A stretch of DNA of 64,000 nucleotides from the NCBI RefSeq assembly GCF_002854065.1, contig NZ_CP024147.1; one strand, given 5' to 3'. A model generated the notes under the pieces. It was not told the DNA's origin. It saw only the letters and a program-made list of their open reading frames with translations, and searched no databases. This document shows positions 54,517 through 56,987 of this stretch, piece after piece; the first letter of the stretch is position 1, and the number at the start of each line of letters is the position of its first letter. A program made the position numbers and the translations under genes. Source of the stretch: Escherichia coli (GTDB taxonomy: Bacteria > Pseudomonadota > Gammaproteobacteria > Enterobacterales > Enterobacteriaceae).

Positions 54517-56987
54517 TTTCGACATAGTCGCCGTTGAAGAGTCGAACATGTGGAGTCCGTGATTCTCTGAGATTTTTACGAAGGCATACTCGATCTGATA
54601 ATCTCTATACTTGTCGATTACCGCACGGACTGCCTGAATCTCTTCCTTATTGAACTTTTTGACTTGTACATGGAAAATTAAGCGAATCGTATCGCCTTTC
54701 TGCCAGTTCATTCGCCTTTGTATTTTTTCTATATTCTCGGCCAGAACAGAGGTTAGAGCGTCGCAGTAAGCTTCCGGTACAACGGCTTTGGACGTACTCG
54801 AGACAATGTAACTACCGTCTCCCGAAAATACGGTGGTGATTCCCATAATGCGCTGATTATGGGCACCACGCTCTTGGACTATATTTGCACTGCCAATACC
54901 GATCACGAGTTCATGGGATAGTGTTGGCGATGATTTGAGTAGCCACGGGACTCCACCCATCTTCGCATAGCAGGCCAGTGACATGTTATTAAGCGAGTAG
55001 CCGAGTGAATAATCAGACTGCGTTAGCAGCTCTATTGTGAAATCCTGTACAGGAACTTGGTGCAAGTAAAATAGGCTTTTACCAAGATAGTAAGGATTAT
55101 CAGCAACTTTGAGTTTTTTAAATGACTGCCGCACCTGTACGAGGGCCAGATCCCAACGTCCTCCTTCATCAGCTTTTTTGCGTATTGCAGCTTCGATGGC
55201 ATTTTTGTATGCATCGACGCTGTCTGTGGATGTTTCGAACACTTCAACACGACTGGTTCCAAGTGCAAATTTACCCTCAAGGCCATTTCTGAAATATTTG
55301 CTATTAGCAATGCCTTTCAGAAGCTTACGGACGAACTGCTCGACTCGCCCTTTGTCATGTTGGGCGCAGATCACGCAGATTGATGGATCGTTCCTATCGA
55401 AGGTACGCTTTGTATAGGGGCCATTTTGTGTAAGACCCTTCTCAGTCCAATCTGCTTCACCGTTATCGTTGAAGACGAACACCGGCTTTTGCATCTGTGC
55501 ACAATCTTTTTGAATATCGGATGGATCCTCAATTTCGATACGCGTTCCATCGAGCAGCGAGATGTTTGTCGCTTGGATATACTTCTTAAGGGCGTCGATG
55601 CGGTCTTTTTTATTCTCGCCTCCGTTGAAAATGGAAACGGACTGCCGAATATGTTCGACAATGGAGTCTTTCTTCGTACCATGCGTATGAAGGATGTAGT
55701 CGTCAAAATTAGCTCGACTAGCTTCGAGATAAACGTCTTTAGCCTCAGCATGAACTGCTTGGCCGTCGGGACGAATGACACTCAGAGTTCTCCCTTCGTG
55801 GCAGCTTTCTACAAACCCTAAAAGTTTTCTAAATCCGTCGTCCTGCTCGGTGACGACGTAGCGACCAATAACATTGAATCCGGTTTTTAGGAAAAACAGG
55901 CAGTTCTCTTTTACTACACGACGTGTTGAGCAATCAATTATAAGACACGGCTGACCTTGGACAGTACGAGTGTCGATTGAATACTTGGCACAAATTTTTA
56001 AGGGATAAGCCTCACCAAGAATTGAGGCTAAAAGATTGTCTTTTGGTTTGGCACTTACCACCTCGATAGGATTGAAGCCGCAAGGAGTTCGACCCAATCC
56101 AGCGAAGTGCTTGAGCAGACCATCTTTAACCAGAGAGCAAAAGGTTCCCAAATTATCCTTTAGTTGCAGTGTCTGCGGTGTACCAGGTTTGGGGAACGTA
56201 CCATCACTCGAAAAAATCTGAATATTGTCACCCTGACGCCGGAAGACGTGCGTCACTTTATGGGAGGAGCGGAGGCTATCTAGAGTCGTCTTGTCGTAGG
56301 GGATCTGGACAAATTTCAACTCCAATTCAGGGATTTTCAGTGGAAACGCATTCAGGACAATCGGCAAGACCCACCCCTTTTGTGTTAGTGAAAAATCCAA
56401 CATACTGCGTCTCGATAATTATTCCCAGTCAGGGATGTGCTGGCACCTGACTGGCGCTCGCTGTGGGTTCCCTCCATCCGACTCTGGAAATAACTGTTTC
56501 AACAATTAATTTTCCTACACTGTAGCGTAAATTTTCTTAAGGCTCCCAAAGCGATTATTTAACTCTTTAAACTAATCTAATGTAAAGACTAGGGAAATGA
56601 TACGAGTGTAGTCTATGTCTTCGCTGTGATGAGGATCTATTCTTCGGTGTACATAGGGGTACTTAAGTTCCGATATAACACTCAACCAGCCTAAATTACA
56701 TCTGCAGGATCTCATGATTAAAATGATCTATGTGGTAGGTCATTAAATGGAGTAACCGGTCTCTCATAGGCAGGCGTAAGCCACCCCTGAGGGGCAGACA
56801 GATGCCATGCAGTTGAATGGTTTAAAGGGTTTGAGAGGGTGATAGTGCTGCGGTTGTCACACTATAGAGTTCTGGCGTAAAAACAGTCAGGCATCTCGGC
56901 ATTTATCAACTCGTCCAACGCTCCTCTGAAATTTGCGGGATCGGTTTAGTTTCAGGTGGGGGCGCTGAGGCCCCCGATTTATCGTAC

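Follow-up and report, generated by a model that had tools for sequence, protein, structure and literature searches.

The window, by which we mean the whole 64-kb stretch of E. coli DNA analyzed, carries a gene for a prokaryotic Argonaute (pAgo) on the minus strand, to the right of which lie the intergenic gap studied here and a VOC/glyoxalase pseudogene, also on the minus strand (56988-57380). The Argonaute gene is EcAgo of the EcBPAN system: it matched PDB chain 23wq (EcAgo) with E = 0, and PADLOC recognized pAgo_II (E = 5e-231) and an adjoining Aga Helical-REase protein (E = 3.7e-132; Pfam DpnII-MboI), i.e., a long-B pAgo with an adjacent Aga nuclease. EcBPAN, consisting of EcAgo and EcbAgaN, is a long-B prokaryotic Argonaute abortive-infection system (Song et al. 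2023, PMC10620215), which was characterized using codon-optimised genes and heterologous promoters; the native upstream region was not addressed in that work. In contrast to EcBPAN as published, the pAgo copy of the window is interrupted by an IS2 element of 1331 bp with rve and HTH_21 domains and a 5-bp target duplication (CGTCC), and the match to the pAgo model is broken by it at residue ~631, without an uninterrupted frame. The gene is intact in strain VTB96935v (NZ_CP178662). As pAgo is inactivated by IS2, selection on the copy in the window may already be relaxed.

EcAgo starts with the TTG at 56367. In-frame TAA or TGA codons occur between the position of the ATG at 56403 and the TTG in Pectobacterium and in related loci with an RHH/CopG gene upstream of pAgo (RHH-type loci), the TTG with a preceding Shine-Dalgarno sequence recurs in many related loci, and PDB chain 23wq begins at residue 13 of the ATG ORF. 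The resulting form of 731 aa has been argued to be the correct one (PMC10620215) and agrees with the gene in the window. Since the TTG is the conserved start and the ATG is not, the corrected gap covers 56368-56987 (620 nt). The following features were located:

53181-54511, plus strand: IS2 insertion splitting pAgo, with the ends TAGACTGGCC... and ...GGCAAATCCA
56365-56367, minus strand: TTG start codon of EcAgo (731-aa form), based on stops upstream in relatives, recurrence of the Shine-Dalgarno sequence, PDB and PMC10620215
56365-56413, minus strand: conserved proximal leader, from a gapless alignment of enterobacterial and RHH-type loci (72 nt)
56368-56584, minus strand: A1, homologue of the cassette that precedes pAgo-AgaN in the sister modules
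56371-56381, minus strand: Shine-Dalgarno sequence AAAAGGGGTGG, near-invariant in all enterobacterial and RHH-type loci
56418-56423, minus strand: -10-like AATAAT from a consensus scan, candidate only
56425-56454, minus strand: lineage-specific 9-bp hairpin CCAGTCAGG/CCTGACTGG (-15.5 kcal/mol, z = -2.4)
56441-56446, minus strand: candidate -35-like GTGCCA, partner of AATAAT at 17-nt spacing
56478-56515, minus strand: block 3, putative relic of RHH/CopG C-terminal codons (nhmmer, local alignment and peptide)
56520-56584, minus strand: block 2, homologue of the RHH promoter/operator and start-codon region (local alignments, nhmmer)
56624-56673, minus strand: block 1, imperfect palindrome GGAACTTAAGTACC, conserved only among enterobacterial pAgo loci
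56686-56753, minus strand: A2, distal pAgo-linked conserved block, from the comparison of loci
56768-56885, minus strand: B, backbone element of CP4/KpLE2-like islands with two imperfect hairpins and the invariant core CATAGTGTGACAACC
56888-56987, minus strand: C, 3′ flank of the VOC/glyoxalase pseudogene including a GC hairpin, shared with pAgo-less genomes
56988-57380, minus strand: VOC/glyoxalase pseudogene, right border of the gap (RefSeq 'VOC family protein, internal stop' in an identical strain; stops in the translation)

Composition and partition of the gap

An earlier sequence-only reading had described an AT-rich region of about 580 bp, free of ORFs of 60 codons or more, between the VOC/glyoxalase pseudogene and pAgo. 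The position is correct, and the length applies to the ORF-free stretch 56404-56987 but not to the gap itself, which is longer due to the TTG start. The longest complete ORF inside this stretch has 47 aa, in line with that reading; however, an ORF of at least 60 aa was lacking in 48% of mononucleotide-shuffled versions of these 584 bases as well, so that the ORF-free state is uninformative. The stretch as a whole has a GC content of 45.2% (window 49.2%, pAgo gene 45.7%), and the description as AT-rich holds only for a core at approx. 56480-56720 with 36% GC. Searching plasmid and phage collections with the gap gave no match, no meaningful repeats or tandem repeats were found within it, and a search of the whole 64-kb window for the module end gave no further copy, whether inverted or direct, that would represent terminal repeats of a mobile unit.

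The partition of the gap into C, B, A2 with block 1, and A1 was obtained from a comparison with about 40 related loci. This comparison, which had been proposed with the earlier reading, revealed a mosaic: the inner part travels with pAgo and the outer part does not, only 56770-56985 being common to the gap and pAgo-less E. coli genomes. The gap is neither a single unit nor statistically remarkable, but an ordinary patchwork spacer, and only its intergenic length is unusual.

Outer part: pseudogene flank and island backbone

Segment C recurs with approximately 86% identity in three pAgo-less E. coli genomes, where it adjoins remnants of VOC, and was also found beside an intact 130-aa VOC gene in K. 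aerogenes. It contains the GC-rich hairpin noticed in the earlier reading, which is real and lies at 56958-56975 (GGGGGC-GCTGAG-GCCCCC; six G-C pairs, 6-nt loop), beginning 12 nt past the VOC stop codon. The folding energies are modest, with -13.8 kcal/mol on the minus strand (z = -1.9; 7 of 200 shuffles as good) and -15.3 kcal/mol on the plus strand (z = -1.5). With its GC-rich 6-bp stem (at least 5 bp were required) near the VOC stop, the structure resembles a Rho-independent terminator; however, the U tract is lacking on the VOC strand, where ACCUGAAACUAAACC follows the stem, and on the plus strand GAUUUAUCG provides only UUUAU and no gene ends there. The hairpin is present with the VOC gene in genomes lacking pAgo; it is not part of the pAgo unit and belongs to the 3′ flank of VOC.

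Element B occurs in 57-64 of 5426 complete E. coli genomes and is unannotated; we know of no earlier description or name for it. In loci L005-L007, L059, L073, and L074, it immediately follows the 3′ end of a gene for YagK/YfjJ (inovirus Gp2-like) and precedes DUF7828 or cargo genes; a more divergent copy was aligned in L054, and each locus has a single copy, with no second one in the window. A viral contig with a B-like pattern, the one match in a pattern scan, was rejected as the B model did not recognize it as a homologue. The order of the backbone is an AlpA-like HTH gene, YagK/YfjJ, B, (DUF7828), and variable cargo. The Cronobacter locus has a truncated ORF of DUF7828, fused to A2. A decayed gene for the DUF7828 zinc-ribbon protein, which is what usually follows B, was considered for the gap and rejected, because tblastn with three proteins gave only scattered hits, none better than E = 0.09. 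The same cargo slot by yfjJ/yagK is found in CP4-57, CP4-6 and KpLE2-type islands, and pAgo-AgaN is in the cargo position here; a K-12 example of such cargo is abpAB (yfjL/yfjK), adjoining yfjJ (PMC10732053). The window carries KpLE2-type neighbors (topAI/yjhX, yjhP, and a GNAT gene). In contrast to the islands named, a block of VOC, GNAT, MFS, topAI, and yjhP separates the YagK gene from B in the window.

Inner part: linkage to pAgo and a probable relic of an RHH/CopG gene

In at least seven different genomic contexts, pAgo-AgaN is found together with the proximal ~320-430 nt. The inner part accompanies pAgo in E. hormaechei, Phytobacter, Cronobacter, E. kobei, Pectobacterium, K. aerogenes, K. 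pneumoniae, and metagenome loci, while the upstream neighbors differ; in Cronobacter and E. kobei, the shared module stops right after AgaN. The proximal leader is the most conserved part of the gap (65-80% invariant columns), a leader-only nhmmer model reached E = 0.004-0.06 against sister loci, and both the leader and its Shine-Dalgarno sequence are kept across the two clades. The inner region as a whole shows 17-40% mismatch versus 6-14% at fourfold-degenerate sites of pAgo and is thus no better kept than pAgo synonymous sites. This speaks against a strong constraint on the region as a whole and suggests recombination close to the start codon. A recurrent recombination boundary at ~56680 was considered but rejected, as the edge in E. 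hormaechei is an IS3-family end (TGAATCGCCACGG..., transposase present) and the Phytobacter homology extends further upstream.

Conservation of A2 and block 1 (56624-56753) is limited to enterobacterial pAgo loci. A2 is present in E. coli, K. aerogenes, E. kobei, and two metagenome loci (L063 and L064), partial in Cronobacter, and absent in E. hormaechei, where the IS3-family end abuts at 56678. Block 1 has no counterpart in RHH-type loci, and its translation gave no Pfam signal. The stem at 56425-56454 is not conserved, being broken or carrying insertions of 9-25 nt in Phytobacter, Pectobacterium, E. kobei, and Cronobacter.

In contrast, A1 has relatives in the pAgo-AgaN modules of Luteimonas, Hydrogenophaga, and Xanthomonas, which encode a 66-aa RHH/CopG protein. 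The ORF, 130 nt upstream of pAgo, was found in four genome loci and four metagenome loci and matches PF07878 (28.7 bits, cut-off 26) and PF01402 (27.8 bits, cut-off 20.5). In Luteimonas gilva, it is located at 5682-5882 of locus L008. AgaN lies downstream in all RHH-bearing sister loci, the edge of the module falls between -411 and -440 relative to the TTG, and the RHH gene is preceded by a 9-bp inverted repeat (GTGCACCAC / GTGGTGCAC); in the sister clade, the RHH gene travels with pAgo-AgaN as one module. Small RHH (CopG/Arc/MetJ-type) autorepressors sit upstream of toxin-antitoxin operons, and C proteins control restriction-modification systems. The RHH-pAgo-AgaN layout would accordingly be the one expected for a dedicated repressor of a toxic operon. 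C proteins differ from the sister regulator in being helix-turn-helix and not RHH proteins. Compared with RHH autorepressor systems, the window has lost the RHH gene, only its flanks are left and the palindrome has decayed.

Two parts of A1 correspond to this gene. Block 3 is covered by one nhmmer alignment, which spans model positions 213-373 and matches the 3′ end of RHH and the spacer of sister loci; RHH 3′ end, spacer and leader together gave E = 1.3e-4 and 3e-6. Local alignment placed E. kobei -150..-71 on RHH-type -178..-93, and a frame-preserved peptide, KLI[AV]EQL[FL]P[ED] (e.g., KLIAEQLFPE), matches EKYVAEQWPLLE of the RHH protein; the E. coli block 3 carries a +1 frameshift. Enterobacterial copies of block 2 aligned to RHH-type -384..-318 with z = 3.4-7.4, always in the same register, and 0-3 of 200 shuffles reached the score; these statistics are from local alignment, semi-global alignment with +1/-1 scoring being uninformative. 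By nhmmer, block 2 gave E = 0.012 in a restricted database and 0.28 in a larger one. The E. coli copy alone is not significant against the RHH-type region (z < 1), and is linked to it via ~85% identity to the Phytobacter copy, in a chain running through Phytobacter, Cronobacter, and E. kobei. The operator palindrome is decayed in block 2 of the window.

Approximately 140 nt of RHH coding sequence are missing, and the promoter/operator region and the last ~12 codons remain. An in-situ decay of the whole gene, with block 2 representing codon ~29 (MAFFT and inspection by eye), was rejected as the local statistics place block 2 on the promoter and start. No intact RHH ORF was found in the window or in any enterobacterial locus examined, and no partly decayed intermediates occur among 11 metagenome hits. 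The collinear homology thus indicates that A1 probably holds the relic of an RHH gene, the E. coli copy reaching significance only by transitivity. The suggestion in the sequence-only reading that the gap might hold remnants of deleted genes is therefore supported for 56478-56584, which is homologous to the promoter/operator region, the start and the 3′ end of the RHH gene; in the rest, neither DUF7828 nor any Pfam family was detected.

Role of the gap and alternative explanations

Promoter prediction, another check proposed earlier, was carried out with a sigma-70 PWM, looking for -35 and -10 hexamers spaced by 16-18 nt, and no candidate in the gap exceeded shuffled sequence. Three candidates were found on the minus strand. 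The best of these, CTGACT-18-TATAGT in B (56861-56890), scored 10-11, where shuffled sequences had their median at ~9 and their 95th percentile at ~12; its -35 element CTGACT is context-specific. The proximal GTGCCA-17-AATAAT scored 6-8, which is below the median of shuffled maxima (~9). AATAAT occupies the same alignment column in six of eight lineages, with AATTAT three columns off in Pectobacterium, and the corresponding -35 region is indel-prone (9-25-nt indels among orthologous loci). On the plus strand, a promoter-like ATTACA-18-TAAAAT lies within A2 (56695-56724). The numbers of promoter-like and terminator-like sites are within the range of shuffles.

Based on these results, we conclude that the gap is probably a composite of non-coding sequences that flanks the EcAgo-EcbAgaN (EcBPAN) operon on its 5′ side, the operon itself occupying the cargo slot of a CP4/KpLE2-like integrative island. 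Direct support exists for the mosaic structure and the homologies as well as for the start codon, and neither a known RNA family nor a conserved ORF was detected. Judging from the sequence comparisons, the gap would most likely serve the pAgo-AgaN operon as promoter and leader, on a relic that has lost its regulator. The earlier proposal of a pAgo promoter with a long 5′ UTR is plausible: the proximal part co-occurs with pAgo-AgaN and keeps leader and Shine-Dalgarno sequence, but no sigma-70 candidate rises above shuffles to mark the promoter.

In the reading as a 5′ flank, all features of the gap would be read on the minus strand. The outer part is not specific for pAgo, with C as the 3′ flank of VOC and B as a backbone element normally placed after YagK/YfjJ and before variable cargo. 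A2, block 1, and A1, together ~390-430 nt, make up the inner part, which is a property of the pAgo-AgaN module and accompanies it in different genomes. The proximal half of this inner part would derive from a three-gene ancestor (RHH repressor, pAgo, AgaN), extant in the three sister genera, and deletion of the missing RHH codons in the enterobacterial lineage would have left the former RHH promoter/operator and the C-terminal codons, followed by the spacer between RHH and pAgo and by the conserved leader, which has a strong Shine-Dalgarno sequence and the TTG. Transcription of pAgo-AgaN would then start in the inner part, from the former RHH promoter, the proximal AATAAT element, or both, and would no longer be RHH-controlled; a low output may be kept by the TTG start and possibly also by H-NS binding to the AT-rich core. 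Block 1 and A2 (~170 nt) are left unaccounted for by this explanation. To our knowledge, the native control of EcBPAN is unstudied; published work has all been done with synthetic genes and inducible promoters.

Alternatively, the gap could be a junction scar of insertions and deletions, pAgo-AgaN being expressed by read-through from upstream genes or from B, so that only the Shine-Dalgarno sequence and the TTG matter. This fits the divergence of the upstream region, which is faster than that of synonymous sites, the frequent indels and IS elements (the IS3-family end in E. hormaechei; an IS at 56634 in L047), the lack of promoter candidates above chance and of a structural signal, and the location of the best promoter-like site in B, outside the pAgo-linked part. 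Nevertheless, we consider such an inert spacer rather unlikely: 320-430 nt are retained in every enterobacterial context examined, even next to an IS, a convergent or an unrelated neighbor unable to give read-through, and the conserved blocks persist at ~40% overall divergence in Pectobacterium. Further, B cannot be the promoter in E. hormaechei, as the sequence upstream of 56678 is replaced there. A small or cis-acting structured RNA, which had also been proposed from the sequence, is improbable. It might be formed by the hairpins of B, by A1 as a long leader, or by a plus-strand antisense transcript of ~250 nt (56695-56724 to 56958-56985). However, the Rfam 15 scan advised earlier gave no match on either strand of the gap with E up to 10, nor in four related loci, the best scores being CRISPR-DR28 outside the gap (19.6 bits, gathering 35) and mir-122 (16.6 bits, gathering 70), both with E > 2, and no tRNA or tmRNA was found. 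Folding of the whole region gave z = -0.38. In covariation tests, whose sequence diversity is limited to 5-10 lineages, the RNAalifold covariation term was unfavourable for A1 at +2.4 (double change in 5 of 69 pairs) and -0.2 for B, where none of 17 pairs showed compensatory changes among 10 variants and covariation was not found. The consensus fold of the leader across the two clades reaches only -3.2 kcal/mol, i.e., no leader structure is common to both, and a start-occluding leader hairpin was rejected since, despite one compensatory pair in Pectobacterium, it is not kept in the sister clade. What speaks for an RNA is that B is a sharply bounded, unannotated and conserved non-coding element of ~118 nt, whose two hairpins are kept by one-sided (wobble) changes, and that promoter-like and terminator-like sites bracket ~250 nt on the plus strand, with the -10 TAAAAT in a conserved block. 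Such sites are, however, as numerous in shuffles, and since the C hairpin is limited to VOC contexts, the proposed antisense unit is not conserved.

With an equally small probability, B might be a cis-acting DNA site, either an origin or nick site for the Gp2/Rep-like YagK/YfjJ protein or a recombination boundary of the cargo slot, which would make the gap a point of cargo exchange. B is always found no more than ~35 nt from the stop codon of YagK/YfjJ and where highly variable cargo begins (Dpd, SNF2/AAA, RecQ/DprA, retron-HNH/methylase, ars operon, and pAgo), junctions were found at 56770, 56782 and 56797 in or beside its second hairpin, and Pfam PF23343 (REP_ORF2-G2P) matches YagK/YfjJ weakly. 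On the other hand, the single copy per locus has no flanking partner site in the 64-kb window, repeated termini were not found, and B is ~9 kb away from any YagK gene in the window. Least probable is an unannotated small protein gene or an upstream ORF controlling pAgo translation. Six lineages have an open ORF of 30-40 codons whose end is 17 nt ahead of the TTG, but it starts at a TTG without Shine-Dalgarno sequence and is closed or shifted in Cronobacter, Phytobacter, and Pectobacterium; the similarity is explained by conservation of the DNA, as the six lineages are closely related there and the conserved leader overlaps with the ORF. Similarly, the 47-codon ATG ORF at 56572-56715 is broken by indels of 4 and 10 nt in other lineages. 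A further ATG ORF of 28-34 codons covers the RHH relic in Cronobacter and E. kobei. Stop-to-stop translations of the gap gave no Pfam match, and conserved small ORFs were rejected in general, as the clusters represent DNA conservation among close relatives and the frames are broken elsewhere.

Returning to the composite 5′ flank, a wider reading can be offered tentatively: long-B BPAN modules may originally have comprised three genes, gated by an RHH autorepressor with a palindromic operator, and EcBPAN may be a regulator-loss variant with a relic promoter, on which the TTG and AT-rich, possibly H-NS-bound, sequence act as brakes. Separately, B may be an undescribed cis-acting mark of the cargo slot.

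Known mechanisms of Argonautes are unaffected by these findings, the region being an ordinary mosaic promoter and leader, with the promoter role inferred. The hairpin and the outer third to half of the gap are unrelated to pAgo, and B is flagged as a recurrent, unannotated backbone element at the cargo slot of E. coli islands. Work on how a host keeps an abortive-infection Argonaute silent can start from the ~400 nt now assigned to the module, from the TTG start behind a conserved leader, and from the RHH regulator of the sister modules, which was lost in the E. coli lineage.

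Composition of the gap upstream of pAgo

The non-coding gap between the VOC pseudogene and the start of pAgo, the Argonaute gene, is an ordinary mosaic of neighbour flank, island backbone and the pAgo module's own upstream region, the latter with the remains of a lost regulator. It was compared with other E. coli genomes, 30 genome loci retrieved via the pAgo protein, loci encoding members of the pAgo protein cluster, and 11 metagenome loci found via the leader pattern. In this comparison, the gap resolves into four pieces, the innermost of which includes two blocks and the leader:

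56888-56987: segment C, 3′ flank of the VOC gene
56768-56885: segment B, an unannotated island backbone element of ~118 nt
56624-56753: segment A2 with block 1, conserved in enterobacterial pAgo loci only
56368-56584: segment A1, homologous to the ribbon-helix-helix (RHH) cassette of sister-clade loci
56520-56584: block 2 (in A1), aligning with RHH operator, promoter and first codons
56478-56515: block 3 (in A1), aligning with the last RHH codons and spacer (nhmmer E = 1.3e-4 and 3e-6)

The sequence-only reading had described 56404-56987 as AT-rich and devoid of ORFs of at least 60 codons. Such ORFs are indeed absent (longest 47 aa); since 48% of sequences shuffled from these bases lack them too, this says little more than that the intergenic gap is long. 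AT-richness holds for 56480-56720 (36% GC) but not for the whole region, which at 45.2% GC is close to the pAgo gene (45.7%; window 49.2%). Sequence comparison shows that the conserved pAgo start differs from the annotated ATG at 56403. Relatives in Pectobacterium, Luteimonas, Hydrogenophaga and Xanthomonas carry an in-frame TAA or TGA between this position and a conserved TTG 36 nt downstream, with the near-invariant Shine-Dalgarno sequence AAAAGGGGTGG ahead of the TTG. The solved EcAgo chain agrees with the 731-aa form, which is also favored by a published argument (PMC10620215). With TTG as the conserved start, the non-coding gap spans 56368-56987 (620 nt).

Three E. coli genomes without pAgo have segment C at ~86% identity beside VOC remnants, and in K. 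aerogenes it adjoins an intact VOC gene. The GC-rich hairpin reported upstream of pAgo is real, if modest (56958-56975; −13.8 kcal/mol, z = −1.9), and is unrelated to pAgo, as it lies in this VOC 3′ flank. It starts 12 nt past the VOC stop and was rejected as a canonical terminator due to the missing U tract on the VOC-gene strand.

Segment B occurs in 57-64 of 5426 complete E. coli genomes, with further copies at L005 3999-4116, L006, L007, L059 2506-2619, L073 2510-2627 and L074 2505-2620; the 64-kb window contains no second one. Outside the window, B always lies directly 3′ of a YagK/YfjJ (inovirus Gp2-like) gene in a CP4/KpLE2-type island and is followed by a DUF7828 zinc-ribbon gene or by variable cargo, for example Dpd, SNF2/AAA, RecQ/DprA, retron-HNH, an ars operon and, in the case of E. 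kobei, pAgo. The core of B, CATAGTGTGACAACC, is invariant. Its two imperfect hairpins persist through one-sided changes, with no compensatory pairs among ten variants. In Cronobacter (L054 1411-2764), three tandem DUF7828 ORFs follow YagK/YfjJ, of which the third breaks off near codon 62 and continues in-frame into pAgo-linked A2/A1 sequence.

A small RNA, also suggested for the gap, is unsupported: neither strand matches an Rfam family, and neither excess folding nor covariation-supported RNA structure was found. The gap likewise contains no tRNA, conserved small ORF, DUF7828 remnant or repeated termini, and has no relatives in the plasmid and phage collections.

The inner gap and the remains of an RHH gene

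Sequence comparison assigns the inner part of the gap to the pAgo module. The 320-430 nt adjoining pAgo recur with pAgo and its partner nuclease gene AgaN behind quite different upstream neighbours, namely an IS3-family end (E. hormaechei), a divergent 530-aa gene (Phytobacter), a truncated DUF7828 ORF (Cronobacter), YagK/YfjJ plus B (E. kobei), an HNH-type gene (metagenome contig L063) and unrelated genes (Pectobacterium). Downstream, DNA shared with Cronobacter and E. kobei stops right after AgaN. An apparent common boundary near 56680 was rejected as a recombination site, as the E. hormaechei edge is an insertion-sequence terminal repeat (IS3-family end at 56678) and homology runs further upstream in Phytobacter.

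The closest non-enterobacterial relatives (protein identity to E. coli ~84% for pAgo and 75-77% for AgaN) carry a 66-aa ORF 130 nt upstream of the pAgo TTG, which scores above the cut-offs of the ribbon-helix-helix families PF07878 and PF01402 and is preceded by a 9-bp inverted repeat (GTGCACCAC/GTGGTGCAC). It was found in Luteimonas, Hydrogenophaga, Xanthomonas albilineans and several metagenome contigs (L008 5682-5882, L009 and L010 5703-5903, L035, L061, L065, L066, L069). In different genomic contexts, RHH-pAgo-AgaN has its common boundary 411-440 nt ahead of the TTG; no description of this three-gene module was found in the EcBPAN paper (PMC10620215) or by full-text search.

Three stretches of the enterobacterial region are collinear with the RHH cassette. 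The leader, with its Shine-Dalgarno sequence, aligns without gaps; in block 3, the peptide KLIAEQLFPE matches EKYVAEQWPLLE of the RHH protein; and block 2 aligns in constant register with a local-alignment z of 3.4-7.4, a score reached by 0-3 of 200 shuffles. The E. coli copy is too diverged for significance alone and is linked via the Phytobacter copy (about 85% identity). About 140 nt encoding the DNA-binding core (roughly codons 5-51) are missing, and the palindrome has decayed. None of the eleven metagenome loci represents an intermediate with a partly decayed RHH gene. The proposal that the gap holds remnants of deleted genes is correct for about 100 nt, the RHH relic; A2 and block 1 contain no recognizable coding remnant. 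Block 1 includes an imperfect 14-bp palindrome (56653-56676, GGAACTTAAGTACC), whose pattern GG..CTT.AGT.CC is retained in nearly all enterobacterial pAgo loci examined (GA in one copy) and which could be a protein-binding site.

The EcBPAN operon and its flanks

51676-52848: EcbAgaN (Aga Helical-REase nuclease), next after pAgo
52836-53315 and 54334-56403, minus strand: pAgo fragments on either side of IS2
53181-54511: IS2, 1331 bp, with 5-bp target duplication CGTCC, splitting pAgo
56988-57380: VOC/glyoxalase pseudogene with internal stop, right of the gap

The gene left of the gap is the long-B Argonaute EcAgo (PADLOC pAgo_II, E = 5e-231; PDB chain 23wq "EcAgo", E = 0), which together with EcbAgaN forms the abortive-infection system EcBPAN (Song et al., 2023, PMC10620215). 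In the window, pAgo is inactivated by IS2; it is uninterrupted in E. coli strain VTB96935v, whose gap is 100% identical. In related strains, other insertion sequences have hit this module: in AgaN (L041), upstream of pAgo at 56634 (L047), and in E. hormaechei with the IS3-family end at 56678. The VOC gene is intact in K. aerogenes (L058 2027-2419; 130 aa, PF00903; locus 95.6% identical to that of the window), and in K. pneumoniae (L056) homology stops within it, at 57095.

Beyond AgaN, 45798-51647 encodes a 388-aa protein without assigned family, an AAA_21/AAA_15 ATPase and type I restriction-modification S and M subunits. All four genes accompany pAgo-AgaN in E. coli, E. hormaechei and Phytobacter, the first two also in Pectobacterium and K. 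pneumoniae; Cronobacter and E. kobei instead have a different gene, of 300 aa, and an HsdR gene at this place. On the VOC side, a yjhP-like SAM-dependent methyltransferase next to topAI/yjhX (57807-58871; L038-L046, L058) is called with 248, 328, 354 or 545 aa depending on the strain, suggesting that starts vary or that two methyltransferase modules are fused. A sub-threshold Rfam CRISPR-DR28 match (57432-57464, minus strand; 19.6 bits versus a gathering score of 35, E = 2.3) corresponds to a GC hairpin between the VOC pseudogene and a Zn_ribbon_2 gene and is probably due to chance.

Conservation upstream of pAgo does not exceed that of the gene's silent sites. In the genera compared, pAgo coding sequences retain 94-99% identity, with 1-14% divergence at fourfold sites. 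Upstream divergence in distant pairs is 17-40%, the contrast being widest between E. coli and Pectobacterium (40% versus 5.7% at fourfold sites). Upstream conservation is fairly even (about 50% invariant columns), with a peak in the leader. The excess divergence is most readily explained by recombination close to the start codon together with weak overall constraint on the upstream region. Against Phytobacter (L036), Pectobacterium (L052), Cronobacter (L054) and E. kobei (L059), E. coli shows mostly 90-100% identity over the pAgo-AgaN coding region (81-85% only at the AgaN 3′ end in Phytobacter), whereas the flanks are far more diverged (60-83% identity upstream; in Phytobacter, 72-88% for the 388-aa and AAA genes downstream). 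This contrast suggests a recent recombinational spread of the operon core.

Expression of pAgo-AgaN

The promoter and leader proposed for the gap are likely: pAgo-AgaN would be transcribed from within its module-linked part. Candidates for the promoter are that of the former RHH gene (block 2) and an AATAAT close to pAgo (56418-56423) whose position in the alignment is the same in most lineages; in score, neither exceeds shuffled sequence. Repression is established behaviour for small RHH regulators encoded ahead of toxic operons, and by analogy the RHH protein of the sister clade would repress its operon via the palindrome. In the enterobacterial lineage, this control would have been lost. 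H-NS binds AT-rich acquired DNA, and the TTG start and the AT-rich core may plausibly be the brakes that remain in this lineage.
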